Assembly (NCBI GenBank): GCA_030603275.1
Contig: JAUVYB010000001.1
Coordinates: 19,832 to 83,831 of the forward strand
Direction of reading: 5' to 3'
From: Deltaproteobacteria bacterium
GTDB lineage: Bacteria > Chloroflexota > Dehalococcoidia > Dehalococcoidales > BS750m-G39
Length of the DNA stretch: 64,000 nt
This document shows positions 6,332-45,822 of this stretch, piece by piece. A model generated the notes under the pieces. The model made no database searches. It was not told the DNA's origin and worked only from the letters and a program-made list of their open reading frames with translations. Both the position numbers and the translations under genes were made by a program. Numbering within the stretch: the first letter of the stretch is position 1; each line of letters opens with the position of its first letter.

Positions 6332-6937
6332 ATGGTAAAAGAGTTCAATATATTAATCACCGGGGTCGGCGGGCAGGGGGTAATTCTGATGTCAGAACTG
6401 CTGGGACGAGCCGCCGTCACCGACAAACTAAGGGTCAGGGGCTCGGAGATACTGGGGATGGCGGTCAGGGGTGGCTCGGTAACCAGCGCCATCAGAATCG
6501 GAGAAGAGGTCTACGGTCCTCTCATCCCCACCGGCAAGTGTAATACCCTGGTCGGCATGGAGCCCTCGGAAGCACTGAGGAATATCGCCTGTCTATCAAA
6601 GTCCAGCCTGGTCATAATTAACACGGCGGTAACCACCCCCTTCACCGTCTTCATAGGTGAGAGTAACTACCCCAGCCCGGAGGAAATACTGGAAAAACTG
6701 GGTAAAGCCTCCGGCAGGATAGTCCAGCTGGATGCGGCTAAAACTGCTCAAGATGCGGGAAGCCGCCTGGCTATCAATATCGTGATGCTGGGGGCATTAT
6801 TCGGCACCGGGCAGCTACCCATAAAAATAGACACCATAAAGGAAACTATAAGAGAGCGCTTCCCGGCTAAACTAGCTCCGGTTAACATCAGAGCCTTTGA
6901 CCTGGGCTACGAGACCTGCCGGCAAGCGGTTAAATAG
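6332..6937 (+). CDS. iorB: Indolepyruvate:ferredoxin oxidoreductase beta subunit
   Basis: N-terminus MVKEFNILITGVGGQGV is typical of the gamma/beta-type OFOR subunit. I moved the start from 6266 to the ATG at 6332, just after the iorA stop. Confidence 0.8.
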   Translation: MVKEFNILITGVGGQGVILMSELLGRAAVTDKLRVRGSEILGMAVRGGSVTSAIRIGEEVYGPLIPTGKCNTLVGMEPSEALRNIACLSKSSLVIINTAVTTPFTVFIGESNYPSPEEILEKLGKASGRIVQLDAAKTAQDAGSRLAINIVMLGALFGTGQLPIKIDTIKETIRERFPAKLAPVNIRAFDLGYETCRQAVK

Positions 6938-8231: not shown

Positions 8232-9623
8232 TCATACCCTTTCCTCTTCCCATATCTTGCCGGGGTTGAGGATGTGGTTGGGGTCCAGTATCGTCTTTAT
8301 CTTACGCATCAGGTTGAGGGCGACCGGGTCCATAGCTTTTTTAAGAAAACGTTGTTTTTCCAGACCAATGCCGTGCTCCCCGGAGAGGACACCGCCCAAA
8401 GACAGCGCCGCTTCGAATATCTCCTCCATCGCCTTCTGGGCTCTGGCAAATTCCTCCTTATTCCTGATATCGGTAAATATGGACGGGTGAAGATTACCGT
8501 CGCCGGCATGACCCAGGTAGCAGATAAAGAAACCGGTCCTCTCCGATATCTCATCCAGCTTGCGGATAAACTCAACCAGCTTATCCCGGGGCACAGCCAC
8601 ATCCTCAGCCATAACGGTGTGGGCGGCGCCAAAGGTAGCGGCAAAACCGGCGCTTCTCATCTTCCAGTACATAGCCGCCTCACTGGCGTCCTTGGCTACC
8701 TTAATCTCTTTAGCTCCGCTCTTTTTCAGGATATCAACGATTTGCTTAGATTCTGCTTCCACTGCCGCCGGCGAACCGTCAGCCTGAAGCAACAGCAGCG
8801 CCTTGGCATCCACTGGCAGCCCCATAGGGGTCATCTCCTCAATCCGCCGCAGGACAAAATTATCCACAAACTCAATCTTGGCTGGCACCACCCCACTGGC
8901 CATGATATTGGATACTGCCTGCCCGCCGACGGCCATATCGTCAAAGACCGCCATCATGGTCTTGTTGGCCGGTGGCATTGGTATTAATCTCAGCGTTATC
9001 TTGGTGATTAACCCCAGCGTCCCCTCGGAGCCGGTGAACAGCATTATCAGCTCATAGCCGGTACGGTTCTTAACCGTCACCCCGCCAAGGTTCATGATGT
9101 AGCCGTTGGCCAAAACCACCTCCAGCCCCAGAACATACTGCTTGGTCACGCCGTACTTAACGCAGTACGGACCACCTGCATTCTCAGCTACAGTGCCACC
9201 TATAGTACAGCCGAGAAAGCTCTGGGGGTCAGGGGGATAGAACAGGCCCTGCTTAGCCAGGGCAATATTAAAGTCCTGAAGCACGACGCCAGGCTCAACC
9301 GTAGCCGTCAGGTTAGTCTTGTTTATATCCAGGATTTTATTCATCCTGGTGGTACAGAGGACAATACCCCCCTTTATCGGGATGGAGCCACCGCTGACAT
9401 TGGTGCCAGCCCCCCTCGGGGTAACCGGAATTTTGCTCTCGTCAGCCAGCTTCAGAATCTGGGAAACCTGCTCGGCAGTCGTCGGCAGCACCACCACATC
9501 AGGCGCATGAGTCCAAGTAGTGGTGCCATCATAGGAATAGGCATTAAGGTCCTCCCTGGAGGTTAGAACCGCGTCCTTACCCACGACATTGCGCAACTGT
9601 GTTATAATCTTCTTCTCCAGCAT
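8232..9623 (-). CDS. FAD-linked oxidase, GlcD / D-2-hydroxyacid dehydrogenase family
   Basis: 463 aa with an FAD-binding PCMH-type N-terminal domain (PRGAGTNVSGG) and C-terminal GEHGIG. Tightly packed behind the 261-aa ATPase gene (1-nt gap). Confidence 0.85.
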   Translation of the reverse strand: MLEKKIITQLRNVVGKDAVLTSREDLNAYSYDGTTTWTHAPDVVVLPTTAEQVSQILKLADESKIPVTPRGAGTNVSGGSIPIKGGIVLCTTRMNKILDINKTNLTATVEPGVVLQDFNIALAKQGLFYPPDPQSFLGCTIGGTVAENAGGPYCVKYGVTKQYVLGLEVVLANGYIMNLGGVTVKNRTGYELIMLFTGSEGTLGLITKITLRLIPMPPANKTMMAVFDDMAVGGQAVSNIMASGVVPAKIEFVDNFVLRRIEEMTPMGLPVDAKALLLLQADGSPAAVEAESKQIVDILKKSGAKEIKVAKDASEAAMYWKMRSAGFAATFGAAHTVMAEDVAVPRDKLVEFIRKLDEISERTGFFICYLGHAGDGNLHPSIFTDIRNKEEFARAQKAMEEIFEAALSLGGVLSGEHGIGLEKQRFLKKAMDPVALNLMRKIKTILDPNHILNPGKIWEEERV

Positions 9624-9624
9624 A

Positions 9625-10410
9625 TCAACCCCCTTTAGAAACTTTTTCCCAGGCTACCAAAGCCGCCCCCAGGGCAGCCACAATCCGCGGCTCCTCGGGA
9701 AGCAGAAGGCGGCAGCCCAATCCCTCCTCTATGCTCTTCACCAGCCCTATATCCTTAGCCCCCCCACCAACTACAGCACAATCAGGCTCAATGCCAAGCC
9801 TGGCCACCATGGTCTGGATTTTAGCGGCTAAAGTCCTATGCAGGCCAGCCAGAATGTCTTCTTTAGCCGCACCTTCAGCAATGCGGGATACCGCTTCCGA
9901 TTCAGCGAATACGGCACAGCCGGTATTAAAGCTAACCCTGTTTTTAGACTTGAGGGATAACTCGCCGATATCTTCCAGGTCAATCTGCAGCACCCTGGCA
10001 ATCACCTGCAGGAAACGCCCGCTGCCGGCAGCGCATTTCTCACTCAGCAGAAAGGCGGTGGCTCTTCCCCGATTATTCAGCTTAAGCACCCTGGTAAATT
10101 GCCCACCGATATCAATGGCAGTTCGAGCAGCCGGAAATAGATAATACACACCTCTGGCCAGACAGGATATATCGGAAGCCGTTTCACTAGAAAAAGAGGC
10201 GCTGGCAGCACCATATCCGGTAGCTACAGTATAAGCTATATCCTTTAGCGATAGTCCTGCCTTAGTCAAAGCCTCCTCAATCACCTGCTCAGCGGTGAGT
10301 TTATAATTCCCTCCCGATGGCATTACTTCGTAGGCTATAATTTCGTTTTCGGCCATTATTACCGCTTTAGAGAAAGCGGAACCGATATCAATCCCTGCAA
10401 CATAAACCAT
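9625..10410 (-). CDS. Activator-type ATPase of the BcrA/BcrD/HgdC (BadF/BadG/BcrA/BcrD) family, paralogue 2
   Basis: 261 aa with ASKHA N-terminus GIDIGSAFSK. Cluster-ligand contexts EKCAAGSGRFL and TGCAVFAESE are present. Confidence 0.85.
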   Translation of the reverse strand: MVYVAGIDIGSAFSKAVIMAENEIIAYEVMPSGGNYKLTAEQVIEEALTKAGLSLKDIAYTVATGYGAASASFSSETASDISCLARGVYYLFPAARTAIDIGGQFTRVLKLNNRGRATAFLLSEKCAAGSGRFLQVIARVLQIDLEDIGELSLKSKNRVSFNTGCAVFAESEAVSRIAEGAAKEDILAGLHRTLAAKIQTMVARLGIEPDCAVVGGGAKDIGLVKSIEEGLGCRLLLPEEPRIVAALGAALVAWEKVSKGG

Positions 10411-10440
10411 TTTTATCTTAGAACCCTATCCCCTGTATCC

Positions 10441-10499
10441 CCTTCCCCTTGTTAAGAGGAAGGGGAAGGTTTTTTTCTGAAGAGGGACGAAGTCCCTCT
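10441..10499. other. Two adjacent GC-rich hairpins in the 100-nt spacer between the two ATPase genes
   Basis: Hairpin A pairs CCTTCCCCTT (10441-10450) with AAGGGGAAGG (10460-10469), followed by T7 on the plus strand. Hairpin B pairs AAGAGGGAC (10480-10488) with GTCCCTCTT (10492-10500) around a GAA triloop. Confidence 0.6.
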
Positions 10500-10510
10500 T
10501 AAACTCCCCA

Positions 10511-11356
10511 TTATGTAAAAATACTGGCCTCTGTCAAGCGGCGTTCGCTTCTGACCAGGGTTTCCCCCTTTTCCACCGCCTCTCCAACTATATCTTTACC
10601 CAGCAGCGCGGCCCCGATAGCCCCGGTAAGCAAGGGCTCAGGAGGCAGCAGCACCGGAAAGCCCAGTTTAGCTTCCAAAGCCTTTACCAAACCGATATTC
10701 TTAGCCCCACCGCCGGTCAGGGCTACCTCCCTTTCTATCTTAAGACGTCTTACCATCCCATATATCCGGGTGGCAATCGCCTCATGCAGACTGGCGATAA
10801 TATCAGGCAGTGCCACCCCCTCCGAAAGCCTGGCTACCACCTCCTGAGCGGCAAACACGGTACAGGTGTTACTTATCTCAACCCTATTCTTAGCCTCCAG
10901 TGACAATCTCCCCATATCCTCCAGGCTTACACCAAGCCCCTCGGCCATCACCTCTAAAAACCGGCCGGTGCCGGCAGCACACTTGTCATTCATGACAAAG
11001 TCCACCGCCCGCCCTGCCTTAAGCTTAATCCCCTTGCTGTCCTGACCGCCGATGTCAATCACCGTCCTTGCATCAGGCAGCAGGTGACCAACCCCCCGGG
11101 CGTGACAGGATATCTCGGTTATCTGTTTATCAGCAAAGGGGACATTAATTCGCCCATAACCGGTAGCCACCACATAGGTTATCTCATCAAAGGAAAGCCT
11201 AGCCTTCGCCAACGCCTCTTCCATTACCCGGTTGGCGAGCTTCCTGTGCTCAGGCCCGGTAGGACCGATGACCGAGGCCAGTGTTGCCTCACTCATAATC
11301 ACTACCTTGGTCATAGTGGAACCAATGTCAACCCCGGCAAAATACTGGCTCTTCAC
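10511..11356 (-). CDS. Activator-type ATPase of the BcrA/BcrD/HgdC family, paralogue 1
   Basis: 281 aa with GVDIGSTMTK, DKCAAGTGRFL and NTCTVFAAQE. Its ATG overlaps the stop of the upstream subunit gene by 4 nt. Confidence 0.85.
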   Translation of the reverse strand: MKSQYFAGVDIGSTMTKVVIMSEATLASVIGPTGPEHRKLANRVMEEALAKARLSFDEITYVVATGYGRINVPFADKQITEISCHARGVGHLLPDARTVIDIGGQDSKGIKLKAGRAVDFVMNDKCAAGTGRFLEVMAEGLGVSLEDMGRLSLEAKNRVEISNTCTVFAAQEVVARLSEGVALPDIIASLHEAIATRIYGMVRRLKIEREVALTGGGAKNIGLVKALEAKLGFPVLLPPEPLLTGAIGAALLGKDIVGEAVEKGETLVRSERRLTEASIFT

Positions 11357-12690
11357 CGGCTCTTAACCGCCTCCAGGGTATCAATAAATGCGTCTATCCT
11401 GGCTCTGGTGTCAGCCTCGTTATAGGAACTGATATCGACGATATCACTCTCCAGAATTAGCGATGGAATATCGCGGTAGATCCTCTTCAGCTGATTAAGC
11501 TGCCAGATTAAACCGGGATGCCAGCTGCGGCAGGAAAAGGCTTCATGCATAACTACCCCGTCTATTTTATAATCCTCAATATACTCAATAAGGCGCTCAA
11601 CATCGGGATTAGAGCCGGGGCGCTTTCTTGCTTTATCATGCCGATATGCCCAGTATTTGACCCACCTCCAGGCCAGGTGCTCCAGAGGGTCACTAACCCT
11701 AGGCAAGTCCAGATTATACACCGGTTCCACCAGCCGGTAGGTGACCTCAGCGGGAAATACCGCCCCCTTACTGTTGAAGTAGTTAAAATCAGTCAAAGCA
11801 AACCATGATGGCAGCCCCCCACCCCACAGCAGCCGGTATTTCTCATCGGGAATTACCCCTTCCCTGTTAGCTATCTTAAGCTGCAGCTCATCATATAAGT
11901 CCTTAAAGAAGTCATAAGCCTCCTGAGTTCCCATCATAAAGGTCATGGGCACCATGGTATTCATGGCGTCACCGGTACCCATGGGACAGGGTACCGCCTT
12001 GCGCAAATCATATGCCTCAGAAATCATGTTCCAGGTCCGGTCACTGATGTCAATCACCTCGCTTAAGCGGTCCCAGTCCATCTTCCGGTTGGTATGCCGT
12101 TCCAGAAATGCCACCAGACCCCGCAACTCCTCTACTATATATTTCACATAGTAGCCCTGAACATCGCGGTAATCATAATCGTCCTCATAGGGCGGATAGG
12201 GAAGCCCGGCAACATAGACCGGTACGTCAGGCATATAATGCTGCGCCGCCTGATACCACTTGTACCTGGGGTCGCAGATAATCTGGCCGCTACCCAGCAT
12301 TACCGTAGGCCGGGCCTGCCCTCCCCAGGGAGGATTGGGGGGCATTTCCCCCGTCTCCTCACGCCAGCTATCAAAGCCCAAACCGCAAAGGGCATAGGTG
12401 CAAAGGGAACGGGAGAAGTTCTCCGATTCCGCCTTCTCCAGAAATCTCTGGGCATCACGCTTGACACCGCATACGCCGGCGTAATTCTCCGTCCAGGCAG
12501 GTACTATATCCATAGCCCTGATAATCTCATCGTAGCCGCTATAGATAAAAGAATAAGCTATGGGCCTGCCTTCCTCTTTTGCCCGCAGATTTTCCGCCAG
12601 GGCTGCCTTAACCATGGGACCTACTCTACTGGCAGCCTCGGTAGCTGTCTTTCTCCTTTTCCTCTCTTCCGGTTTCTTCTCCTCAGTCAT
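11353..12690 (-). CDS. Benzoyl-CoA reductase B/O-type or 2-hydroxyacyl-CoA dehydratase large subunit family protein
   Basis: About 445 aa with HgdA/BcrB-family resemblance. I moved the start from 12825 to the ATG at 12690 (MTEEKKPEE...), which has GGAGG upstream and clears the previous gene. Confidence 0.75.
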   Translation of the reverse strand: MTEEKKPEERKRRKTATEAASRVGPMVKAALAENLRAKEEGRPIAYSFIYSGYDEIIRAMDIVPAWTENYAGVCGVKRDAQRFLEKAESENFSRSLCTYALCGLGFDSWREETGEMPPNPPWGGQARPTVMLGSGQIICDPRYKWYQAAQHYMPDVPVYVAGLPYPPYEDDYDYRDVQGYYVKYIVEELRGLVAFLERHTNRKMDWDRLSEVIDISDRTWNMISEAYDLRKAVPCPMGTGDAMNTMVPMTFMMGTQEAYDFFKDLYDELQLKIANREGVIPDEKYRLLWGGGLPSWFALTDFNYFNSKGAVFPAEVTYRLVEPVYNLDLPRVSDPLEHLAWRWVKYWAYRHDKARKRPGSNPDVERLIEYIEDYKIDGVVMHEAFSCRSWHPGLIWQLNQLKRIYRDIPSLILESDIVDISSYNEADTRARIDAFIDTLEAVKSR

Positions 12691-12712
12691 ATCCGCTCTC
12701 CTCCATATACCG

Positions 12713-13888
12713 CTATTTTGAGCCGAGCACTTCCAGAAATGCCTGAATTCTGGTTCTAAGCCGACCAATGGTTGACATGGAATACTCATCCTCAAGATAA
12801 AGCACCGGAGCCCCCACCGATTCAATGTAGCTTTTCATCGCCGGCACATCAAAGCCATAGGGGTCGCAGTACTTATAGATATAGAGCACCACCCCATCCA
12901 CCTTAAAATCCTTGATAAAACGCCCGATATGCCCGAATCTCTCCTCAAGATAATCATCGTAGTCACCCTTCTTCTCCCTGAAGGTCCGGCCGCACTTTAT
13001 CTTCCTCAAATACCGCTCAGCTATACCTTCGATAGGGTCAGCGGTGACATCTGCATCATCAAAGAACTCCCTGGCTCCGGGGCACAAATCATCAGCCACC
13101 ACCCAGGCACCGCTATCCTCAATCAGGTCGATAAAAGTGACATCATCAACTTCGGCGCCGACCACCATTATTCGGGCTGGTTTGGCTGCCAGAACACCAC
13201 CCCTCTGTTTGACCTCCTTGATAACACTATCTATAAGCAGGGTGGCTTCCTCTACCGGCATACTCACCGACGCTATAAGCAATTTGGCTACCTCAGCGCC
13301 CGAGATTAAGGGTGGGGAAGCCTTCCTTAACTCATACAACTCCCTCACCTTAGCCCTGTTTTGATTATAGAGACTAATTGCCTGATTAAGACTCTGGTCA
13401 GAAATCTCCTTACCGGTGAACTTGCTCAAGCTGGTTCTAAACGTATTCAGCAGCGCTTTATAGAATTTGAGCGACGGCCCATCAGTGGAATGGGGCATAT
13501 TGATGAGATGGGAATAGGGGAGGTTAAGGGTATTTTTCCAGACATTGTAAGTCGTGGAGATACTATCACAGGCGTGAGGGATGACGATGCCGTCAAGGAA
13601 CTCATATTTCCCTTTTAGCGACATATCAAACCAGCTCCGCACCAGAGGACAGACGATAGTTTCCATCTCGGTATCAGCCTTGGTAATGGGCTCGTTGACA
13701 TCACCTTTTATCCGGAATGGAACCAGGCCGGCCGCAGCTATAATCTCAACCGGAGTCAAGGCACAAAGATAGCCTATTATCTGCTTCCCCTGCTTTTTCA
13801 GCTCTCTGACTCTGGAGCCGTAGTCCTCATAGTATCTATCTGCCGCCGCCAATCCCCTACTACCAGCTTCTTCTGGCATAACGTCCAT
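12713..13888 (-). CDS. Benzoyl-CoA reductase C/N-type or 2-hydroxyacyl-CoA dehydratase subunit family protein
   Basis: About 391 aa. The N-terminal GKQIIGYLCALTPVEIIAAAGLVPFRIKG is typical of this family. The start is ambiguous: TTG 13900, ATG 13888 or ATG 13879. Confidence 0.75.
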   Translation of the reverse strand: MDVMPEEAGSRGLAAADRYYEDYGSRVRELKKQGKQIIGYLCALTPVEIIAAAGLVPFRIKGDVNEPITKADTEMETIVCPLVRSWFDMSLKGKYEFLDGIVIPHACDSISTTYNVWKNTLNLPYSHLINMPHSTDGPSLKFYKALLNTFRTSLSKFTGKEISDQSLNQAISLYNQNRAKVRELYELRKASPPLISGAEVAKLLIASVSMPVEEATLLIDSVIKEVKQRGGVLAAKPARIMVVGAEVDDVTFIDLIEDSGAWVVADDLCPGAREFFDDADVTADPIEGIAERYLRKIKCGRTFREKKGDYDDYLEERFGHIGRFIKDFKVDGVVLYIYKYCDPYGFDVPAMKSYIESVGAPVLYLEDEYSMSTIGRLRTRIQAFLEVLGSK

Positions 13889-13910
13889 TCCTTTCCCCAA
13901 AAGCCCGGCT

Positions 13911-15222: not shown

Positions 15223-16431
15223 CTAAAGTATAGCCTTTTCATCCCTTAGCTTGGTAATATCATCCCAGGTGTAACTCAGCTCTAACAGAATCTCCTCAGT
15301 GTGCTGCCCAAATTCAGGTGCCTCCCTTCTTACCGAAGCCGGGGTTTTACTGAAATCCCAGGGAAAGCCAACCACCTTGGTCCTACCCAAGACCGGGTGG
15401 TCAAACCAGGTAACGTAGTCATTGGCTAGAGCCTGGGGGTCATCAACCACCTCGCCGGTCGATTGAATAGGGGTATAGATTATACCCTCCTTCTTAAAAA
15501 TATCAAACCACTCCTCCCTTGTCTTGGTAAGAAACTCTTTATCCATAATAGCGATAAGCTCTCTGGCATTCGCCCCCCTGGCTTCTATACTATTGAACCT
15601 GGGGTCTTTTTCCAACTCGGGCATACCCAGAGCCCGGCATACATTAGGCCAGTACCTGTCCGGCTGGAGGTGAGCCAAAATGAACCATTTGTCATCCCTA
15701 GCTCTATAGTGGTTATAGATTGGGTTACCAGCCTCAGCTCTGACTTCCCTGGGGAATTCCTGGCCCAGTATAGCCGGCGCCGACAAAACCAGACTTAACA
15801 TAGACACTATACTTCCCATTAGCGAGGTATCAACCAGCTGCCCCTTGCCCGTCCTCTCCCTGGCATAGAGGGCAGTGCAAACCGCCCAGGCACAGACCAT
15901 CCCCCCAAGCTCATCGCCCAGCCCGGGCAATATCTGGGCGGGAGGGGTACCACGCTCCCCACAGGACATCATAAGCCCCGAACGGCCTATACCAGTATAA
16001 TCAAAGGAAAGCCCGTTGGCATCAGGGCCCTTCCTGCCCCAGCCCGAGGCTTGAGCGTAGATAAGCCTTGGATTTCTCTCAAGCAGCGCCTCAGGGCTAA
16101 TGCCTATCTTTATCGGTGCCTCTATACTCAGGTTAGTGACAAAGACATCAGCGCCATCAATCAGCTTTAAGAATATCTCCATACCCCTTTCCGTTTTCAG
16201 GTCCAGGACAATGCTCCTCTTATTACGATTGTGATTCTCAAAGTAATAATTCCGCCCCTTCAAACCAACCATGGTACCAATAATTCTCATAAAGCCTCTG
16301 GCCGGGTCTCCAGTTGGAGGTTCCACCTTAATTACATCGGCACCCAGATCCCCCAGCTTGGTGCCGCAAACCGGCCCCTGCTGAAACATGGTCAGTTCCA
16401 CCACTTTAACTCCATCTAACGGTCCAGGCAT
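15223..16431 (-). CDS. Family III CoA-transferase, copy B (tandem paralogue)
   Basis: Also exactly 402 aa and about 70% identical to copy A by eye, with GLGDELGG. The same CATAATTCACACCTCCT string spans both start sites. Confidence 0.85.
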   Translation of the reverse strand: MPGPLDGVKVVELTMFQQGPVCGTKLGDLGADVIKVEPPTGDPARGFMRIIGTMVGLKGRNYYFENHNRNKRSIVLDLKTERGMEIFLKLIDGADVFVTNLSIEAPIKIGISPEALLERNPRLIYAQASGWGRKGPDANGLSFDYTGIGRSGLMMSCGERGTPPAQILPGLGDELGGMVCAWAVCTALYARERTGKGQLVDTSLMGSIVSMLSLVLSAPAILGQEFPREVRAEAGNPIYNHYRARDDKWFILAHLQPDRYWPNVCRALGMPELEKDPRFNSIEARGANARELIAIMDKEFLTKTREEWFDIFKKEGIIYTPIQSTGEVVDDPQALANDYVTWFDHPVLGRTKVVGFPWDFSKTPASVRREAPEFGQHTEEILLELSYTWDDITKLRDEKAIL

Positions 16432-20820: not shown

Positions 20821-21423
20821 TTATTTAACTTCTACAGTAGCCCCGGCTGCTTCCAGTTTCTGTTTTATGGTAGTTGCTTCTTCCTGATTAATCCCTTCTT
20901 TTACCGTCTGAGGGGCACTCTCAACGAAGTCCTTTGCCTCTTTCAGCCCCAGGGTAGTAACCTCTCTCACTGCCCTGATAACGCTGATTTTATTAGCCCC
21001 GATTTCTTTGAGAACAACGCTGAACTCCGTTTTCTCCTCAGCCGCCGCTGGAGCTTCAGCCGCTGCTGCCGGCGCTGCTACCGCAACCGGAGCGCTAACG
21101 CCGAACTCAGTCTGTAGCGCCTTGACCAGCTCTGATAGCTCAAGCACACTCATCTTCTTTATACTGGTCATTATCGCCTCAACGGCTGCCGAGCTCTTCA
21201 CCTTAGCCTTGGCTTTGGGTTCCTTTGTCTCAGCCTTGGCTTCAGGTTCCTTCACCTTGGCCTCAGCTTTAGGCTCTTTTACCTCAGCTTTGGCTTCAGG
21301 TTCCTTCACCTCGGCCTCAGCTTTAGGCTCTTTTACCTCAGCCTTGACTTCAGGTTCCTTCACCTCGGCCTCAACTTCAGGTTTCTTGGCTGTTTTTTTG
21401 CCCTTGGCTTCCTCTTCTGGCAT
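20821..21423 (-). CDS. rplL: Ribosomal protein bL12 (L7/L12) with a roughly 75-aa repeat-rich N-terminal extension
   Basis: Residues from about 78 to 200 are canonical L7/L12 ([21 protein letters not shown], an Ala/Pro hinge, and a C-terminal domain ending GATVEVK). The ATG at 21423 sits 5 nt after GAGGGAGGA at the end of rplJ. Confidence 0.9.
21200..21390. repeat. Coding tandem repeat, 54-bp unit (27-bp sub-period), about 3 copies
   Basis: Units at 21231-21284, 21285-21338 and 21339 onward differ by only a few bases. They encode KEPEAKAEV-type nonapeptides. Confidence 0.85.
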
Positions 21424-21424
21424 A

Positions 21425-21949
21425 TTATCCTCCCTCTAATTGCTGAATTCTTGCTTGTAACCCAGCTATAAGCCCCATCATTGGGGAAGTAAGCTGGCCC
21501 ACCAGAGCCGAGATAGGACCTTGCACCCCACCCACAACCATGGCCAATAACACCTCTTTCGACGGTAAGGCAGAAAGGGTGATTACCTCCTCCTTGGTAA
21601 GTAGCCTATCAGGTAAAAGGCCTCCCTTGATACTCATGGTGGCTTTTGAGTCCTCAATGTAAGTGGCTAAAGCTTTAGCCGGTTCAGTTATATCGCCATA
21701 GCCAAAAGCAATCGCCACCGGCCCATCAAGGAAACCGAACAGTTCTTCCCTGCCCGATTTCTGGGCGGCAAACCGGGCCAGCGTGTTCTTCACCACCTTA
21801 TACTCAATCCCCGCCTCCCTCAGCCGGCGCCGCAACTGGGTCATCTCGTTAGCTGATTGACCCCGGTAATCGGTCAGAATAGCAACGCTGCACCGAGAAA
21901 ATAGCTCCTGCAGACTATCGATAATCGCTGTTTTCTTTTCCCTGGACAT
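21425..21949 (-). CDS. rplJ: Ribosomal protein uL10
   Basis: 174 aa with typical L10 sequence ([25 protein letters not shown]) immediately upstream of rplL. Confidence 0.95.
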
Positions 21950-21987
21950 TGCCCTTTACCCCCAATTAACACTATAAATATTCACCT

Positions 21988-22024
21988 AAAAAAGCAGGCC
22001 CTTGCGCCTGCCGCACAAGGGCCT
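21988..22024 (-). terminator. Intrinsic terminator or attenuator hairpin between the DUF35 gene and rplJ
   Basis: On the minus strand, AGGCCCTTG (11-nt loop) CAAGGGCCT forms a 9-bp stem followed by GCTTTTTT. It ends about 38 nt upstream of the rplJ ATG. Confidence 0.6.
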
Positions 22025-22127
22025 ATAATTCAAGCCCTTTGTATCCTCGGCAGGCAGTTCATTAAGCCTCAACTGGCACCCGCTGTCTCAGGAAACCTGT
22101 TTTATCCTGTTATTTTATTCTATTTTA

Positions 22128-22616
22128 CTACTTTACCGGCTCAAAAGCAAAAAACACCCTCGGCGCCTCCTCCATCACACCGCCCCTTTTTTCTATTATC
22201 ATCGGCGGTACATCATAGACAGCCAGCTTGACGGTATCGCCTTCTTTAAGCTGCCCCTCTTTGCAGTTAATGACGCGGGAGATAAGCTTGCGCCCGTCCT
22301 CCAGTTCAATACGGGCGTGAATCAGAGGTGACTCAAAGCCGAGAGGGACTCCGGCTAACTCTTCGGTAAACCGAAGCACCTTGCCCTTAGTGGGCAGGTC
22401 AACCCACTCCAGGGAATCGGAATTACACTTCGGGCAGACCACCCGCGGCGGGAAAGACACGGTGCCGCATTTGGTGCACTTGGTGGTGGTAAAGCGGTTC
22501 TCCCTCAGGTTTTCGTAAAACTGGTGAACACGGTTAAACTCTTTAGCCTCGAAAGGATACATATCCAGAGTCGATGGGTATAAACCTTCTAAAATCGGTA
22601 CTCCCGGTACTGGCAT
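22128..22616 (-). CDS. DUF35 OB-fold/zinc-ribbon protein (thiolase partner)
   Basis: 162 aa with the zinc ribbon CTKCGTVSFPPRVVCPKCNS followed by an OB-fold-like region. Confidence 0.8.
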   Translation of the reverse strand: MPVPGVPILEGLYPSTLDMYPFEAKEFNRVHQFYENLRENRFTTTKCTKCGTVSFPPRVVCPKCNSDSLEWVDLPTKGKVLRFTEELAGVPLGFESPLIHARIELEDGRKLISRVINCKEGQLKEGDTVKLAVYDVPPMIIEKRGGVMEEAPRVFFAFEPVK

Positions 22617-22654
22617 AAACTTACCCCCTTATAATCTAGCGTTAATACTCTCTC

Positions 22655-23836
22655 TTAGGGCTCTCTACCGTAGATGAGTATGGTATGCTCAACGTTAAGG
22701 CCGCTCAGGTTATGGGTCAACCCTATCTTGGCGTCCTTCGCCTGATTTATCGCCCTGCCCTGCAACTGGAAGAAAATCTCCATCGCCTGGCGGATGCCGG
22801 TGGCACCAAAAGGATGGCCGCAGGAGAGCAGGCCGCCATCGGTGTTTACCGGAACCTTACCACCGAAATCGTTCTGTCCCGATTCTACAAAAGCACCCCC
22901 CTCCCCCTTCCTGCAGAACCCAAGGTCCTCCATCTCGATAATCTCCGAGATAGTGAAGCAATCGTGGGTCTGGGCAACATCGACATCTTCGGGACTGACC
23001 CGCGCCCTCTCGAAGGCCTTCTTAGCGGCGGTTCTCAGGTGAACCCAGTCGGACAGGTCTTCACCGAGCCAGTTCATCGACATACTGTGAAGAGAAGCCT
23101 GAGCCGTCCCCCGGATATAGACCAGGGGTCTATCGGTAAGCTCTTTGGCCTTATCCTCACTGACCAATATCACGGCGGCACAGCCGTCGGTGATAGGGGT
23201 ACAGTCAAACAGGCCGAGGGGCGGCACCACCGCCCTGGCATTTATCACCTCTTCTATGGTAACCGCTTTCTGGAACTGCGCCTTGGGGTTGTTGGCACCG
23301 TTACGGCGGTTCTTCACCGAGACAGCCGAAAGCTGCTCCTTGGTCGTGCCGTAGCGCTTCATATGATCCTGGGCAGTCATGCTGAAGAATGGGGGCGGCA
23401 GACCCATACCCTGGGCACCATCCCAATCATGGTCGATGGAAGCCATCTCGCTGTAATAGGTTTCCCAGCGCTGCGGCGTATATAGCTTCTCGCCGCCGGA
23501 TACCATCACCACATCGGCCATCCCTGCTTTTATCAGGCCAGTAGCCATGATAATGCCCGAACTACCACCGGCGCAGAGGGTGTCCACCCTGGTGCAGATG
23601 CTAGTCGGCTTGATACCGATGCGCTCGGCGACTACCGGAGCAGCGTTAACCTGGAAGGCGCTCCGTCCGCAGTAGGAAGAAGCAAAGATAAGGCCGTCTA
23701 TGTCATCTTTCTTCAGTGCCGGTACATCGTCAAAACAATCCTTAGCTGCTTCCTGAGCCATGTCTATTATGCTTGCCTCTCTAACCCCCCACCGATCCAT
23801 ACCCGCGCCGACAATACAAACATTTCTATCCGCCAT
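22655..23836 (-). CDS. Thiolase-like protein (SCP-x / lipid-transfer-type thiolase family)
   Basis: 393 aa with a thiolase fold, an active-site Cys context (TLCAGGSSG) and C-terminal GHPFGATG and NLSG motifs. Confidence 0.8.
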   Translation of the reverse strand: MADRNVCIVGAGMDRWGVREASIIDMAQEAAKDCFDDVPALKKDDIDGLIFASSYCGRSAFQVNAAPVVAERIGIKPTSICTRVDTLCAGGSSGIIMATGLIKAGMADVVMVSGGEKLYTPQRWETYYSEMASIDHDWDGAQGMGLPPPFFSMTAQDHMKRYGTTKEQLSAVSVKNRRNGANNPKAQFQKAVTIEEVINARAVVPPLGLFDCTPITDGCAAVILVSEDKAKELTDRPLVYIRGTAQASLHSMSMNWLGEDLSDWVHLRTAAKKAFERARVSPEDVDVAQTHDCFTISEIIEMEDLGFCRKGEGGAFVESGQNDFGGKVPVNTDGGLLSCGHPFGATGIRQAMEIFFQLQGRAINQAKDAKIGLTHNLSGLNVEHTILIYGREP

Positions 23837-23859
23837 GTTAAAACCTCCTTAAATATCGC

Positions 23860-24273
23860 CTAACCCTTTATAAATTCGTAGGCAATCCTGCCCTCAGGCA
23901 GTTTCACCGGGCTGACCGTTAAATTCATGCCGATCGTGATATCCTTCTCCTCAATATCCCGGCTCAATCGGGCCAGGATCTGTATGCCCTCATCAAACTT
24001 AGCCAGAGCCAGAATATAGGGAGCGTCGTTCTCAAAACCGCTGGGACCGTAATTTACCACAGTATAACTTGCGAGCTTACCCTGGCTCTTAACTTCGAAC
24101 CACTCCACATCGCTGGAAAGGCACTTCGGGCAATCCGCCTTGGGTGGAAAGTAGCTACCCCCGCACTTCCGGCATCTGGTGGCCATTACCTTGCCTGCCT
24201 CCAGTTGGGTTATAAAATCAGCCACCTTGGCTTCGGCAGTAAAGCTAACCGTGCCAAAATTCTCAAAGCCCAT
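23860..24273 (-). CDS. DUF35 OB-fold/zinc-ribbon protein (thiolase partner)
   Basis: 137 aa with the zinc ribbon CRKCGGSYFPPKADCPKCLS. Confidence 0.8.
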   Translation of the reverse strand: MGFENFGTVSFTAEAKVADFITQLEAGKVMATRCRKCGGSYFPPKADCPKCLSSDVEWFEVKSQGKLASYTVVNYGPSGFENDAPYILALAKFDEGIQILARLSRDIEEKDITIGMNLTVSPVKLPEGRIAYEFIKG

Positions 24274-24279
24274 TTAAAG

Positions 24280-25431
24280 CTACCTCCTCAAAATGGTTAC
24301 GTTGCCGTATTGCCCGACGCCACCGATATTATGCACCAGGCCTATCTCTGCGTCCTTCACCTGAGCCTCGGTGGCCTCCCCCCGCAGCTGGCGGACAATA
24401 GTCCGAATTTGCGAGCCGCCGGTAGCGCCTATCGGGTGTCCTTTAGATAACAAACCGCCGTCGACATTTACCGGTATCTTGCCATCGGCATAGGTCTCTT
24501 TATTCTCAATCAACCCCACTCCCTCCCCGGGCTTGGCAAAGCCCAGGTCTTCATAAGCCAGAAGCTCGGAAACGGTAAAACAATCGTGAACCTCGGCCAC
24601 ATCAATATCCTGAGGTTTAACACCGGCCATCTTATAAGCCTGCCTAGCAGCCTCCTGAGCACACCGCAGTCCGGTAAGCGATTCCCTGCCGGCCATGGTC
24701 ATGGTATCAGTGGCCGCCCCCAGACCGGCAACCCAGATGGGGGTTTTGCTTATACTCTTGGCAACATCGCCTCTGGCCAGGATAACGCAGGAGGAGCCGT
24801 CGGCATTGGCGCAACAATCAAACTTCTTCAGCGGGCTGGTTATCATCTCCGAGTTCAAAATAGCCTCCAGGCTCAGCTCCTTGCGGTAGTTGGCCTTGGG
24901 ATTGTCCACCCCGTAGTGGGAGTTCTTGACCCGCACCTTGGCTAAGTGCTCCTCGGTAGTCCCGTACCTGGCCATATGAGCCCGGGCGTACATGGCATAG
25001 CCAGCGGGCATGGTTATCCCAAAGGGGGATTCCCAGATTATATCTCCCCCCCGGCCCATCCTCTCGGCAGCGTCACGGGAGGAAAGCTCGGACATCTTCT
25101 GAAAACCTATCACCGCCACCGTCTTGTGAAGCCCCGCCTTTATCAGTGACCAGGCTACTCTTAAACCCGTGCTGCTGGAGGAACAGACCGTCTCCACATA
25201 GAAGGTCGGCTTGGGGGTCAACTCCAGATACTCCGATATTAAGCCCGATGGTGAGCGCTGTTTATCATATTCCGGCGCCGAGCAAACAACAGAGGCATCT
25301 ATATCATTACCGGTGATATCCAGGCCCTCCAGTGCCTCCTTATAAGCCTCAAAACATAACTCCCGGATAGATTCACCGCAGCTACGACTAAAAACGCTCT
25401 GACCAGCACCGATGACAGCAACATCTTCCAT
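24280..25431 (-). CDS. Thiolase-like protein (SCP-x / lipid-transfer-type thiolase family)
   Basis: 383 aa with VCSSSSTG, GHPIGATG and NIGG motifs. It starts 31 nt after the rplA stop, with AAAGGGGA upstream. Confidence 0.8.
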   Translation of the reverse strand: MEDVAVIGAGQSVFSRSCGESIRELCFEAYKEALEGLDITGNDIDASVVCSAPEYDKQRSPSGLISEYLELTPKPTFYVETVCSSSSTGLRVAWSLIKAGLHKTVAVIGFQKMSELSSRDAAERMGRGGDIIWESPFGITMPAGYAMYARAHMARYGTTEEHLAKVRVKNSHYGVDNPKANYRKELSLEAILNSEMITSPLKKFDCCANADGSSCVILARGDVAKSISKTPIWVAGLGAATDTMTMAGRESLTGLRCAQEAARQAYKMAGVKPQDIDVAEVHDCFTVSELLAYEDLGFAKPGEGVGLIENKETYADGKIPVNVDGGLLSKGHPIGATGGSQIRTIVRQLRGEATEAQVKDAEIGLVHNIGGVGQYGNVTILRR

Positions 25432-27613: not shown

Positions 27614-28819
27614 TTACTCGATGATGCGGCTAATGGTACCGGCACCTACCGTTCTACCCCCTTCCCTGATTGCAAAACGCAGACCTTGCTCCATGGCCAC
27701 CGGATAGATAAGCCTTATCTTCATGTCAATATTATCGCCGGGCATGACCATTTCCACCCCTTCCGGCAGCTCGATAGTCCCGGTAACATCAGTAGTCCTG
27801 ATATAAAACTGTGGCTTATAACCGTTAAAGAAGGGTGTATGCCTGCCTCCCTCATCCTTACTCAAAACATATATCCGAGCCTCAGCGTAGGTATGGGGCT
27901 TAATGCTCCCGGGGGCAGCTAACACCTGACCCCGCTCTATCTTCTCCCGGTCTATACCCCGCAGCAGAACGCCGACGGCGTCTCCCGGCTCAGCATAATC
28001 CAGAGTCTTATGGAACATCTCCAAGCTGGTAGCCACCGTCTTGTGGGGCTCGTGGTGCAAGCCAACTATTTCAATCTCATCCCCGGCTTTAATCACGCCT
28101 CTCTCAACCCTCCCCGTGGGCACGGTACCCCGCCCCTTGATGCTGAAAACATCCTCCACTGACATCAAGAAGGGCTTGTCTTTAGGCCGCTCCGGGGTCG
28201 GAATATAGCTATCAACGGCATCCATCAACTTCCAGATAGCACCGCACCACTCACACTCCCGCTTGCCACAGCCGCACTCCAGAACCTTAAGGGCGCTCAC
28301 TCTAATTATGGGAACCTCGCTGCCGGGGAAGCCATACTTGGGCAGTAATTCCTCCCTGAGCTCCATTTCGGTCACCTCTAAAAGCTCCGGGTCATCCACC
28401 AGGTCTATTTTATTCAGAGCGGTCACTATGTACGGCACCTCAACCTGATGCGCCAGCAAGAGATGCTCCCTAGTCTGAGGCATCACGCCGTCATCAGCCG
28501 CCACCACCAGTATGGCACCGTCCATCTGGGCAGCACCGGTTATCATGTTCTTAATATAATCGGCATGCCCCGGACAATCAATATGAGCGTAGTGACGTTT
28601 CTCAGTCTCATACTCAATATGAGCAATAGCGATGGTCAGTCCCCGCGCCTTTTCCTCAGGCGCATTATCAATAGTGGCAAACTCACGGTAAGAGGCAAAA
28701 CCCACCTTGGACAACACCAGGGTAATCGCCGCGGTCAAGGTTGTCTTGCCATGGTCAACATGACCGATAGTGCCCACATTGCAATGGGGCTTTGTCCGCT
28801 CAAATTTCTTCTTTGCCAT
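27614..28819 (-). CDS. tuf: Elongation factor Tu
   Basis: 401 aa with G motifs [13 protein letters not shown] and NKID. Unusual cysteine cluster at residues 182-192. Confidence 0.98.
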
Positions 28820-28837: not shown

Positions 28838-28910
28838 AGCCCACAACCAGATTCGAACTGGTGACCCCGTTCTTACCAAGAACGTGCTCTACCAACTGAG
28901 CTATGTGGGC
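28838..28910 (-). tRNA. tRNA-Thr (anticodon GGU)
   Basis: Hand-folded cloverleaf: acceptor GCCCACA/TGTGGGC, anticodon loop TTGGTAA, T-loop TTCGAAT. CCA is not encoded. Confidence 0.9.
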
Positions 28911-29223: not shown

Positions 29224-29307
29224 TGGAGGGGGTAGGATTCGAACCTACGTAGCCCTTTGGGCGGCAGATTTACAGTCTGCTCCGATTAACCACTCCGGCA
29301 CCCCTCC
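29224..29307 (-). tRNA. tRNA-Tyr (anticodon GUA), long variable arm
   Basis: Acceptor GGAGGGG/CCCCTCC and anticodon arm GCAGACTGTAAATCTGC. Overall very similar to E. coli tRNA-Tyr. Confidence 0.9.
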
Positions 29308-29327
29308 CCACATCACCAATAAATCCC

Positions 29328-29400
29328 AGCCCGAGAGGGGATTCGAACCCACTAACCTACCGATTACAAGTCGGTTGCGCTTCCATTGCGCCACTCGGGC
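29328..29400 (-). tRNA. tRNA-Thr (anticodon UGU)
   Basis: Acceptor GCCCGAG/CTCGGGC and anticodon loop CTTGTAA. One mismatch in the hand-folded T-stem. Confidence 0.8.
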
Positions 29401-29560: not shown

Positions 29561-29858
29561 AAACTGAATATTGAATAAAGGCTGAGAACGAGACTAGTAG
29601 GCTCCAAGCGGGGCTAAAGAGAGCCGGGTAAGGTGTAAGCCGGCGCCAGCGCAGGGGTTGAATGGACTCGGGAGCCGCAAACCGAAAGGGATTCCCAAGT
29701 AGGCTTTGACGGAGGGGCACCGTTAGCTGAGCCCAGAGTATCGCTTTAAATATTAAGGCTGTACCCGAAAAGAGATGGTTGCCATTTTGGTAATCAATTA
29801 GGGTGGCACCGCGAAGGATTAACCTTTCGCCCCTATAGGGGTGGGAGGTTATTTTTTT
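29561..29858 (+). promoter_or_regulatory. T-box leader RNA, probable Trp (UGG) specifier
   Basis: T-box sequence AATTAGGGTGGCACCGCG lies at about 29796-29813. Also present: AGAGAG (AG-bay-like), an AGTA motif, and GAA-TGG-A with TGG at 29663-29665. A terminator follows directly. Confidence 0.8.
29823..29858 (+). terminator. T-box terminator hairpin
   Basis: CCTTTCGCCCC-TATA-GGGGTGGGAGG forms an 11-bp stem including 3 G-U pairs, followed by TTATTTTTTT. The RBS AAAGGAG and the GTG start of trpE follow. Confidence 0.75.
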
Positions 29859-29881
29859 AGGGAAAAGGAGTTAAGTTTACT

Positions 29882-31342: not shown

Positions 31343-31904
31343 TTATGATAGCTTTACCTATAACCTGTACCAGTACTTAAGCGAACTGGGGGAAGAGGTA
31401 CGGGTAGTCCGCAATAACAAGACAACTCTGGACGAAATTGAAATGATGAACCCGGAGCGCATCGTAATCTCACCCGGCCCCTCCACCCCCTTAAACGCCG
31501 GCATATCCAACGATGTCATCCGGCATTTTAGCGCCAAGGTGCCCGTCCTCGGCGTTTGCCTGGGTCACCAGTGTATCGGCTATAGCTACGGAGGCGCCTT
31601 TGGCCCGGCCAGGAAGATTATGCACGGTAAGTCGTCTCTGATCTACCATAACAATACCGGCGTCTTTAGTAGCCTCCCCAACCCATTCCCCGCCATCCGC
31701 TATCACTCTCTGGTCGTAGTCCGGGAAGAACTCCCCGACTCTCTGGAGATAACCGCCTGGACCGAAGATAACACCATCATGGGGCTTCGTCACCGCCACC
31801 ACCCGGTGGAGGGGGTGCAGTTCCACCCCGAATCTTTTATGACCCACGCCGGGAAGGATATACTAAGAAATTTCCTGGCCAAGGAGGTGGCCCGGCATGA
31901 TTAA
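31323..31904 (+). CDS. trpG: Anthranilate synthase component II (glutamine amidotransferase)
   Basis: 193 aa with MLLLIDNYDSFTYNLYQYL, GVCLGHQ and FHPES. Confidence 0.95.
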   Translation: MLLLIDNYDSFTYNLYQYLSELGEEVRVVRNNKTTLDEIEMMNPERIVISPGPSTPLNAGISNDVIRHFSAKVPVLGVCLGHQCIGYSYGGAFGPARKIMHGKSSLIYHNNTGVFSSLPNPFPAIRYHSLVVVREELPDSLEITAWTEDNTIMGLRHRHHPVEGVQFHPESFMTHAGKDILRNFLAKEVARHD

Positions 31905-32928: not shown

Positions 32929-32933
32929 GAGCC

Positions 32934-34342: not shown

Positions 34343-34378
34343 AGCAATGGATTATCCAATCAAAGGAGGAACAGGCAA

Positions 34379-40691: not shown

Positions 40692-40708
40692 GGTATTTAT
40701 AGGGGGAT

Positions 40709-43758: not shown

Positions 43759-43797
43759 GTCCTCCCCTCAGGGACTTAACGGTTTATGTCAACCAGG

Positions 43798-45812: not shown

Positions 45813-45822
45813 ACCGAAAGGT

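Follow-up and report, generated by a model that had tools for sequence, protein, structure and literature searches.

A predicted ATP-driven radical enzyme of Dehalococcoidia that pairs reductase-like subunits with a dehydratase-like gene neighbourhood

The characterised 2-hydroxyacyl-CoA dehydratases (HAD) employ one homodimeric activator, and their pathway gene sets are exemplified by fldAIBC-acdA and hadAIBC-acdB, whereas two different ATPases are the pattern of the benzoyl-CoA reductases (BCR) of the same superfamily, with the gene order N-O-ATPase-ATPase in both bzdNOPQ and bcrCBAD. We have analyzed a locus with this order on a 64,000-nucleotide stretch of contig JAUVYB010000001.1 (positions 19,832 to 83,831, forward strand; assembly GCA_030603275.1), deposited as a Deltaproteobacteria bacterium and placed by GTDB in the Dehalococcoidales; this whole stretch is referred to as the window, and coordinates are those of the window. 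The superfamily and the four-gene architecture are already known. The hardware of the predicted enzyme is reductase-like and its recurrent gene context is dehydratase-like. Our tentative preference, held with slightly less than even confidence, is for a 2-hydroxyacyl-CoA dehydratase-type ketyl-radical enzyme, the substrate of which is probably aryl-lactyl-CoA.

A previous examination of the window without database searches (the sequence-only reading) had described four minus-strand genes of the BCR/HAD superfamily at positions 9625-13900. The listing of open reading frames (ORFs) and the Pfam matches agree with it in gene order and sizes; the four same-strand genes encode an N-like subunit, an O-like subunit and two ATPases, as follows:

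12713-13888, minus strand: N-like electron-storage subunit (N), 391 amino acids (aa); alternative start at 13879, giving 388 aa
11353-12690, minus strand: O-like catalytic subunit (O), 445 aa, PF06050, predicted three-cysteine [4Fe-4S] site
10511-11356, minus strand: ATPase-1, 281 aa, PF01869, canonical ASKHA electron-transfer ATPase
9625-10410, minus strand: ATPase-2, 261 aa, PF01869, cluster cysteines kept, nucleotide site degenerate

Membership in the superfamily is likewise upheld by the two PF06050 (HGD-D) subunits, by the two PF01869 proteins, which are ASKHA ATPases with two cluster cysteines per subunit, and by BzdN and BzdO as solved relatives. The maximal span of the N-like ORF is 12713-13900, from a TTG start (395 aa), and the starts at 13888 and 13879 are likelier; homologues of N are 385-391 aa long, and one identical protein listed at NCBI has 388 aa. 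The start of O at 12690 is the conserved methionine of MTEEKK, common to 33 of 33 orthologues examined. N and O are separated by 22 nucleotides (nt), O and ATPase-1 overlap by 4 nt, and 100 nt lie between ATPase-1 and ATPase-2. Two short inverted repeats capable of forming hairpins, gagggacttcgtccctc and ccccttcctcttaacaaggggaagggg, lie in this last spacer (10411-10510, minus strand); both are without a T-tract typical of terminators.

N matches PF06050 with 287 bits and is only 22% identical to O. The closest solved structure to N is BzdN (8s02_B, E = 1e-57, 32% identity), followed by HadC (2e-39, 28%), DCCP (8e-32, 27%) and MbdN (23%). N scores below all NCBIfam equivalog cut-offs: double_cubane, its best model, with 226 against 350 bits, bzdN with 196.8 against 453.8, HadC with 174.2 against 700 and BcrC with 143 against 421. 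BzdN holds an [8Fe-9S] double cubane on six cysteines, like DCCP, and this cluster was lost in the dehydratases (PMC11971306, Fuchs et al. 2025); in BzdN it can store at least two electrons (PMC11971306). N has six invariant cysteines (C42, C80, C107, C269, C299 and C341, numbered on the 391-aa form), which line up with all six of the [8Fe-9S] ligands in both BzdN and DCCP. Two of the six are missing in HadC, which has Pro and Ala at the positions of C42 and C269, and three are missing in MbdN. From the BzdN/DCCP ligand motif we infer that N carries a double cubane. The best 120 of 1942 proteins retrieved with N at E <= 1e-20 are 76-100% identical and originate from metagenome-assembled genomes (MAGs) and metagenomes; they appear as 'benzoyl-CoA reductase subunit C' or 'bzdN' at JGI and as '2-hydroxyacyl-CoA dehydratase' at NCBI.

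Both the JGI names (bcrC/bzdN) and the nearness of N to BzdN, six-cysteine motif included, speak for an alternative that we regard as possible but doubtful, namely that the enzyme is a divergent, Dehalococcoidia-specific class I (ATP-dependent) aryl-CoA ring reductase. A CoA-transferase or an AMP-forming ligase would then make benzoyl-CoA or an analogue of it, substituted or extended, the heterodimeric ATPase would give two ATP-energised electrons by way of the double cubane, and O would perform a Birch-like dearomatisation. Against this, the Bzd and Bcr equivalogs are widely missed, the bzdN, bzdO and bzdQ scores all being less than half of the cut-offs. The catalytic subunit divides between the two sides in the same manner. 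In BzdO the [4Fe-4S]-OH2 cluster sits on Cys95, Cys128 and Cys380, Glu65 and His131 are positioned at its water, and the pocket for the benzoyl/thioester group comprises Trp46, Tyr97, Gln274, Tyr298, Leu302 and Leu383 (PMC11971306). C97, C139, C387, E68 and Y99 of O correspond to BzdO C95, C128, C380, E65 and Y97, and the first four also align with their HadB equivalents. The retention of Glu65 and Tyr97 favours a ring reductase; the replacement of BzdO H131, Q274, E381 and L383 by the invariant R142, L293, R388 and W390 of O does not. These four replacements are common across the radiation to which O belongs and are not family-specific; they argue against Bzd membership and would give no substrate identity. 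The equivalents of BzdO Ser44 and Trp46 depend on the alignment, with two alignments in disagreement, and O has two extra invariant cysteines, C74 and C102. Arg142 and Arg388 were considered as the mark of a carboxylate substrate, an idea that was dropped because Arg142 and an Arg or Lys after the third cysteine are widespread in the radiation.

The overall similarity of O to the characterised proteins is low. O matches PF06050 with 188 bits and is 23-25% identical to its solved relatives BzdO (8s02_A, E = 2.5e-21, or 2.8e-26 in a family-profile search; 23%), MbdO (1.4e-17; 23%) and HadB (2.6e-15). It falls below the NCBIfam equivalog cut-offs for HadB (103.8 against 750), bzdO (90.6 against 448.6) and BcrB (82 against 487); the HadB and HadC models are specific to the isocaproate enzyme. 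Ubiquitin entries aligned to residues 264-304 in the search of the Protein Data Bank (PDB) were discarded as artefacts, no stretch passing alone. A phmmer search with O of 1.84 billion cluster representatives gave 1383 matches, 183 of them at E <= 1e-30. None of the 150 best has fewer than 133 bits, compared with 79 bits for BzdO and 59 for HadB when the solved structures were searched separately. When 110 full-length representatives were combined with BzdO, MbdO and HadB in a neighbour-joining tree, the window O was placed within a large radiation distinct from these three references. The three references fall outside its near clade in 100 of 100 bootstraps and outside a wider 23-taxon sample of the radiation in 89 of 100, a separation that again counts against a ring reductase. 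All trees were made by neighbour-joining on MAFFT alignments, with references rebuilt from PDB alignments (BzdN/O, MbdN/O/P/Q, partial HadB, HadC, HadI, HgdC, DCCP and DCCP-R); FldBC, HgdAB, LcdAB, BcrBC and BadDE were left out. Members of the O radiation have only generic names and come from MAGs labelled Dehalococcoidia, Chloroflexota, Bacillota or Pseudomonadota. With the equivalogs missed, O outside the BzdO/MbdO/HadB clade and the relatives carrying generic MAG names, no characterised clade was found to hold the large subunits, which accords with the earlier description of the locus as a candidate undescribed enzyme system.

The two ATPases match PF01869 (BcrAD_BadFG) with 222 bits for ATPase-1 and 181 bits for ATPase-2. 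Both exceed the TIGR00241 cut-off of 125.4 (274.6 and 234, respectively) and miss the bzdQ equivalog (159.5-166 against 380.2). For both, HadI is the closest protein of solved structure; for ATPase-1 it is found with E = 8e-71 and MbdQ with 1.5e-70. The two proteins are 50% identical to each other (132/262, E = 7e-80). As the sequence-only reading had stated, both retain DIGS, KCAAG(T/S)GRFL and C(T/A)VFA. ATPase-1 is canonical in 28 orthologues (DIGSTMTK, GYGR, TEISCHARG, GGQDSK, KCAAGTGRF and CTVFA). ATPase-2 shows changes fixed in 25 of 25 orthologues (GSAFSK, GYGA/S, SDISC(L/Q) and GGQF(T/S)(R/K)), in all of which the gene is intact; compared with ATPase-1 in the window, GGQD is changed to GGQF, TEIS to SDIS, GSTxTK to GSAFSK and GYGR to GYGA. 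The phosphate-binding segments of DCCP-R are given as S9-N11 and Q92-D94, and D94 or E69 is the proposed base for the lytic water, with an approximately ten-fold loss of activity in E69Q/N (PMC9351452). Since ATPase-2 has Phe at the position of D94 and Asp at that of E69, its predicted nucleotide site is probably non-hydrolytic. The previous description of the two ATPases is retained for the cluster cysteines and DIGS, with the correction that the phosphate-binding and catalytic-base positions of ATPase-2 are substituted.

The same substitutions could mean that ATPase-2 is a decaying duplicate and the system effectively a one-activator enzyme, an outcome that the sequence-only reading had named as one that would refute it. 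It is borne out in part, since canonical ATP-site residues are missing: the GGQD aspartate, the glutamate that matches DCCP-R E69 and the threonine in the first phosphate loop. Decay is nevertheless very improbable and was rejected on motif fixation and dN/dS. Identical substitutions are fixed in the 25 intact orthologues, the cluster cysteines are retained, and median dN/dS is 0.12 for ATPase-2 and 0.10 for ATPase-1, so that both genes are under purifying selection. Moreover, a similar pair occurs both in a paralogous cluster, where O is 41% identical, and at a distant locus (L050), and a working reductase has a like asymmetry, with canonical MbdQ (GGQD, TEIS) and divergent MbdP (GGQT, TDLT).

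Because ATPase-1 and ATPase-2 are sister paralogues, being mutual closest relatives among the tree references (51% identical, against 47% between ATPase-1 and HadI), this canonical/degenerate heterodimer seems to have arisen independently of the Thauera-type MbdP/MbdQ pair. The paralogous Dehalococcoidia cluster (L046/L047) already has a canonical and a degenerate member (GGQD/TEITC and GGQA/TDISC); the duplication is therefore old, as had been proposed from the divergence of the two proteins. L050 combines one canonical with one strongly degenerate ATPase, while L048 has a single canonical ATPase. For a ring reductase, both the MbdQ/MbdP-like asymmetry and the bzdNOPQ order of the genes count as support; the resemblance to BzdNOPQ in gene order and sizes, already pointed out in the sequence-only reading, is reinforced by BzdN and BzdO as best solved relatives.

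The genes around the four-gene core are as follows:

15223-16431, minus strand: CoA-transferase family III, copy 2, 402 aa, PF02515 377.7 bits
13911-15119, minus strand: CoA-transferase family III, copy 1, 402 aa, PF02515 394.5 bits, stop 10-22 nt before N
8232-9623, minus strand: GlcD-type FAD-linked D-2-hydroxyacid dehydrogenase subunit (GlcD), 463 aa, PF01565 and PF02913
6941-8230, minus strand: CCG-domain iron-sulfur partner, HdrD/GlcF/LdhH-like (CCG protein), 429 aa, two PF02754 CCG domains and PF13183
4428-6326 and about 6332-6937, plus strand: iorA and iorB, indolepyruvate:ferredoxin oxidoreductase (IOR), convergent neighbours outside the operon

The eight minus-strand genes from 16431 to 6941, in the order two CoA-transferases, N, O, ATPase-1, ATPase-2, GlcD and CCG protein, form one operon of a Dehalococcoidia genome. 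They overlap by 4 nt or lie at most 103 nt apart. There is no convincing terminator within the operon, a promoter/terminator scan having given no signal above shuffle expectation by which it would be split, and no riboswitch was found near it in an Rfam scan. The two CoA-transferases share 72% identity, and the best solved relative of copy 1 is succinate-hydroxymethylglutarate CoA-transferase (SUGCT; 9br6, E = 1e-58). They had been called FldA-type, of which only the family III affiliation is confirmed. GlcD scores 498.5 against TIGR00387 glcD, under the cut-off of 567.9, and its solved relatives are glycolate oxidase (9qgz, 4e-97), LctD (6e-90), LDHD and D2HGDH. The CCG protein matches the C-terminal part of LdhH with 338 bits and GlcF with 155 bits. 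The ior genes pass the TIGR03336 IOR_alpha (796, cut-off 650.9) and TIGR03334 IOR_beta (208.6, cut-off 205.8) models. The remaining annotated part of the window is housekeeping.

A scan of species-representative genomes provided 43 loci (designated L001 onwards), nearly all in Dehalococcoidia or Dehalococcoidales MAGs; N is 63-82% identical in the orthologue context loci. Counts refer to loci with enough flank, and flanks extend to at most 10 kb rather than over whole genomes. N and O are adjacent in 31/31 loci and are followed by two ATPases in 23/27. Two of the four loci scored as lacking the ATPase pair are artefacts of ORF picking, and L033 and L039 are truly without adjacent ATPases. A recurrence of the four-gene arrangement at this level is far beyond chance. 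A co-oriented family III CoA-transferase is found directly upstream of N in 23/31 loci, GlcD downstream of the ATPases in 17/25 and the CCG protein in 13/19, so the dehydratase-type neighbourhood seen by the sequence-only reading is real and conserved. Besides the window, only L016, L025, L038 and L042 have the second CoA-transferase copy. In about ten loci (for example L003, 9023-9964) a 310-aa metallo-beta-lactamase-fold protein, not present in the window, lies between the CoA-transferase and N; it is weakly similar to subclass B3 lactamases and hydroxyacylglutathione hydrolase and may be a thioester hydrolase.

Families present in at least 4 of the 43 loci are the CoA-transferase, GlcD, the CCG protein, IorAB, the metallo-beta-lactamase-fold protein, an AMP ligase, an aminotransferase, an AsnC regulator, thiolase/DUF35 and housekeeping proteins. 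A crotonase, a short-chain dehydrogenase and a ring hydrolase of the dch/had/oah kinds are absent from these recurrent families, and bzdM ferredoxin, korAB and bzdV are not among the recurrent neighbours either. The genuine bzd clusters of Anaerolineae single cells are reported to carry bzdA, bzdM, korAB, bzdV and dch-had-oah (PMC5736913), and the lack of this set speaks against a ring reductase, as does the tightly linked GlcD/CCG pair, which has no role in known BCR pathways. Wider synteny (rplJ/rplL, ComM, UvrA and thiolase/DUF35) was discounted as functional evidence, as it reflects the relatedness of the genomes. Three of the loci, L016, L032 and L042, are labelled Deltaproteobacteria; they have the gene order of Dehalococcoidales, including rplJ/rplL, ComM and UvrA, and N is 66-76% identical. 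Given this shared synteny they are probably mis-binned or mislabelled.

Several loci are rearranged relative to the window. N-O-ATPase-ATPase lies beside an aminotransferase and an AsnC regulator in L002, L006, L009 and L010 (N 77-81% identical). L001/L006 contain two AMP-forming ligases and an acyl-CoA dehydrogenase, the best family of which is the clostridial acryloyl-CoA reductase AcrC (500 bits). L030 retains the CoA-transferase and IorBA and is missing GlcD. L033 has IorBA and, divergently oriented from N-O, a YdiJ-like protein of 1058 aa in which GlcD, FeS and CCG parts are fused; in both L030 and L033, IorAB still adjoins the cluster despite the rearrangement. At L049, in a MAG labelled Pseudomonadota, O is only 37% identical and a GlcD and CCG pair lies a few genes away; this recurrence favours functional coupling over inherited synteny. 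The GlcD/CCG link, which persists through fusion, rearrangement and a fall to 37% identity, is the context evidence to which we give most weight.

Still other arrangements are found around related N-O pairs. At L039 (12546-16755; O 82% identical) and the distant L050 (784-4694), N-O stands beside CoxG and a three-subunit molybdenum (Mo) enzyme of the xanthine-dehydrogenase family, and L039 has in addition a DMSO-reductase-family molybdoenzyme upstream. The paralogous cluster mentioned above (L046, 4605-11014; L047 alike), from other Dehalococcoidia, has the order family III CoA-transferase, formyltransferase-like protein, six-cysteine N, O (41% identical), canonical ATPase and degenerate ATPase, flanked by a 645-aa thiamine-pyrophosphate enzyme (Oxc/HACL/ALS-like), an HMGL-like protein, an AMP ligase, an aminotransferase and an AsnC regulator. 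The six-cysteine form of N is widespread in the radiation, occurring also in L046, L048, L049 and L050.

The operon core would encode a CoA-thioester-specific, ATP-driven, low-potential radical enzyme, for which we propose a path of electrons drawn from the homologues and a net reaction drawn from the gene context. ATPase-1 and ATPase-2 would form a heterodimer with one bridging [4Fe-4S] cluster, two cysteines coming from each subunit, and with a hydrolysis-competent site in ATPase-1 only. ATP hydrolysis would drive one electron onto the [8Fe-9S] double cubane of N and from there to the three-cysteine [4Fe-4S] cluster of O, where the acyl-CoA would be bound; reduction of the thioester carbonyl by this electron would give a ketyl radical. 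The net reaction would be the reversible alpha-hydroxyl elimination of an (R)-2-hydroxyacyl-CoA to an enoyl-CoA. Because IOR is paired with a family III CoA-transferase, aryl-lactyl-CoA derived from Phe, Tyr or Trp is favoured as the probable substrate.

The pathway may be a dismutation of the acrylate or Stickland type. An aminotransferase would provide the 2-oxoacid, which the GlcD/CCG flavo-iron-sulfur enzyme would interconvert with the (R)-2-hydroxyacid. The family III CoA-transferase would place the hydroxyacid on CoA, the N/O enzyme would dehydrate it, and an acyl-CoA dehydrogenase of the Bcd/AcrC type would reduce the enoyl-CoA, while IOR would oxidise the remaining 2-oxoacid to arylacetyl-CoA with a gain of ATP. 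As a group, the CoA-transferase, D-2-hydroxyacid dehydrogenase, IOR, aminotransferase and AcrC-like reductase amount to the enzyme set of the Fld/Had-type amino-acid and acrylate pathways. Stoichiometric use of ATP is hard to afford in fermentation (PMC5736913); following this argument, a catalytic use of ATP suits the anaerobic, energy-limited Dehalococcoidia better than a reductase consuming 2 ATP per turnover, which is a further point against ring reduction.

A number of observations weigh against a dehydratase and several of them would be expected of a ring reductase. BzdN and BzdO are the best solved relatives of the two large subunits, the six-cysteine motif known from BzdN and DCCP is lost in HadC (PMC11971306), and both the pair of different ATPases and the gene order are those of the reductases. 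The CoA-transferase is nearest to SUGCT and Frc, with a likeness to FldA/HadA that is only putative, and the hydroxyacid dehydrogenase of the Had/Fld pathways is NAD-dependent, whereas that of the window is of the FAD/iron-sulfur type. No acyl-CoA dehydrogenase or Etf was seen in the 64-kb window, and much of the wider synteny (rplJL, ComM, UvrA) is mere genome relatedness. The best NCBIfam family of the L039 Mo enzyme is 4-hydroxybenzoyl-CoA reductase alpha (687 bits, cut-off 995), so that an enzyme of this kind adjoins N-O in L039 and, by family, in L050, a setting suggestive of aromatic CoA esters. Finally, lignin amendment enriched Dehalococcoidia together with bcr-annotated genes (PMC10116835).

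The Mo enzyme of L039 and L050, the AMP-forming CoA ligases near the cluster in L001/L006, L030 and L033, and the reports of marine-sediment Dehalococcoidia with bcr genes and a response to lignin (PMC10116835, PMC10570749) thus lend further support to ring reduction. The hydroxyacid and oxoacid enzymes would in that case act at an earlier step of the pathway, GlcD/CCG and IOR turning an aryl-2-hydroxy/2-oxo acid (for instance mandelate to phenylglyoxylate) into an aroyl-CoA.

Reductase-type hardware and a 2-hydroxyacid context could also be reconciled by a third reaction of the superfamily, in which a non-aromatic CoA ester would undergo a net, ATP-coupled reduction by two electrons. Possible examples are the conversion of a 2-hydroxyacyl-CoA to the saturated acyl-CoA (reductive alpha-dehydroxylation) and the reduction of an aryl-acrylyl-CoA, with the double cubane as two-electron reservoir, a function for which the capacity of BzdN for at least two electrons (PMC11971306) is suggestive. 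On this view, which we consider improbable, the enzyme and the surrounding MAG-only radiation would form a third functional BCR/HAD class, whose reaction would differ from both ring reduction and redox-neutral dehydration; one example may be that aryl-lactyl-CoA undergoes direct reductive alpha-dehydroxylation, driven by a heterodimeric ATPase with one active site. It is in keeping with this that the cluster has no enoyl-CoA reductase gene next to it in the window and at most loci, and that the O radiation is without a characterised member and has varied contexts (B12 mutase, crotonase, Mo hydroxylase). Such a reaction is, however, without precedent or direct evidence, and the AcrC-like enoyl-CoA reductase that accompanies the orthologue in L001/L006 fits an ordinary two-enzyme route. 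Furthermore, at L048 a six-cysteine N occurs with only one ATPase, a canonical one; a double cubane is therefore by itself no sign of stoichiometric electron input.

The dehydratase-type enzyme that we tentatively prefer can be set against each of the characterised systems. BzdNOPQ of Aromatoleum sp. CIB (BzdNO structure 8S02, PMC11971306) has the same gene order and similar sizes, shares with N all six double-cubane cysteines and with O the three cluster cysteines, Glu65 and Tyr97, and likewise has two different ATPases after the catalytic genes. It differs in the low identity noted above, in the BzdO active site, in the clade of O and in its neighbours: bzdA, bzdM, bzdV, korAB and dch-had-oah there, and the CoA-transferase, GlcD/CCG and IOR here. 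Among the families that recur in at least 4 of the 43 loci, within flanks of up to 10 kb, no benzoate-CoA ligase, ferredoxin with its regenerating system or dch-had-oah set was found.

The Had and Fld systems (HadBC with HadI and HadA, FldBC with FldI and FldA) likewise have a three-cysteine [4Fe-4S] catalytic subunit with the conserved Glu and an adjacent family III CoA-transferase, and their D-2-hydroxyacid dehydrogenase, aminotransferase, acyl-CoA dehydrogenase and 2-oxoacid:ferredoxin oxidoreductase have counterparts in the neighbourhoods described here. HadC has lost two of the cysteines that N keeps, so that N is not a single-cluster beta subunit of that kind; one homodimeric activator is replaced here by two non-identical ATPases; the HadB and HadC cut-offs are missed; and the had, fld, hgd and lcd genes have another order, with the activator first and alpha before beta. 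Thauera-type MbdONQP (PDB 9G87/9GAI) and BcrCBAD share the four-subunit architecture, and the heterodimer of canonical MbdQ and divergent MbdP has the asymmetry of ATPase-1 and ATPase-2. MbdN has only 3/6 cysteines, however, the ATPase duplication appears to be independent, and identity to MbdN and MbdO is 23%. DCCP and DCCP-R of Carboxydothermus hydrogenoformans (6ENO, 7YYL) share with this system the six ligating cysteines of N and an ASKHA ATPase with a bridging cluster; DCCP-R is a homodimer, unlike the pair here. DCCP, for which no CoA-ester substrate is known, forms a homodimer that contains two double cubanes, whereas N is paired with an obligate neighbour, O, that has only three proximal cysteines and a predicted single cluster.

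Other features of the window are summarised briefly. A T-box leader (RF00230, 119.5 bits; 29575-29837, plus strand) precedes a 13-gene tryptophan and shikimate operon (region 29575-42681), in which trpE, trpD, trpC, 3-deoxy-D-arabino-heptulosonate 7-phosphate (DAHP) synthase, aroB, aroA, aroE, aroC and trpB exceed their equivalog cut-offs. A split pair resembling phosphoenolpyruvate (PEP) synthase (42709-45489, minus strand) consists of a 349-aa PPDK_N ATP-binding protein and a 563-aa protein that ends in a PEP-utiliser mobile domain and has the 'hypothetical' PRK08296 as best family. The two may form a two-subunit phosphotransferase, with a layout that presumably recalls phenylphosphate-synthase-type enzymes. 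Two thiolase-like proteins (383 and 393 aa) and two DUF35/ChsH2 Zn-ribbon-OB proteins (137 and 162 aa) are encoded as successive pairs at 22128-25431 (minus strand), just upstream of rplJ/rplL, and many Dehalococcoidales loci share this synteny. A ribosomal L10 leader (RF00557; 21982-22110, minus strand) lies ahead of rplJ and rplL (region 20821-22110); the rplL ORF is listed with 200 aa and has L12 domains from residue 82, and its true start is probably further in. Five tRNA genes lie at three spots on the minus strand (28838-28910, 29224-29400 and 45739-45896), the first of which adjoins the EF-Tu gene (27614-28819).

Metagenome papers refer to such Dehalococcoidia genes as class I BCR by homology alone (PMC5736913, PMC10116835). 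A search of the accessible literature found no paper that characterises the family or questions the BCR label, and nothing relevant that links Dehalococcoidia to 2-hydroxyacyl-CoA dehydratases or reports misannotation. As judged from sequence comparison, the family is a distinct, uncharacterised clade combining Bzd and Had features and failing defining features of both. Its usual annotation in databases, as an aromatic-ring reductase, is unproven and could be mistaken.

In metagenome studies, bcr genes reported from marine-sediment Dehalococcoidia have been used to argue for the degradation of aromatics and lignin derivatives (PMC10116835, PMC10570749, PMC5736913). If the bcr genes counted in those papers should belong to this family, and if the enzyme should be a dehydratase-type step in the fermentation of amino acids or hydroxy acids, the ecological inferences would need revisiting. 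The family unites features held to separate reductases from dehydratases, and it could show the loss or repurposing of the double cubane from DCCP-like ancestors, in the scenario of PMC11971306. The apparently independent origin of a heterodimer with one degenerate site suggests that such ATPases are a recurrent means to halve the ATP cost per electron.

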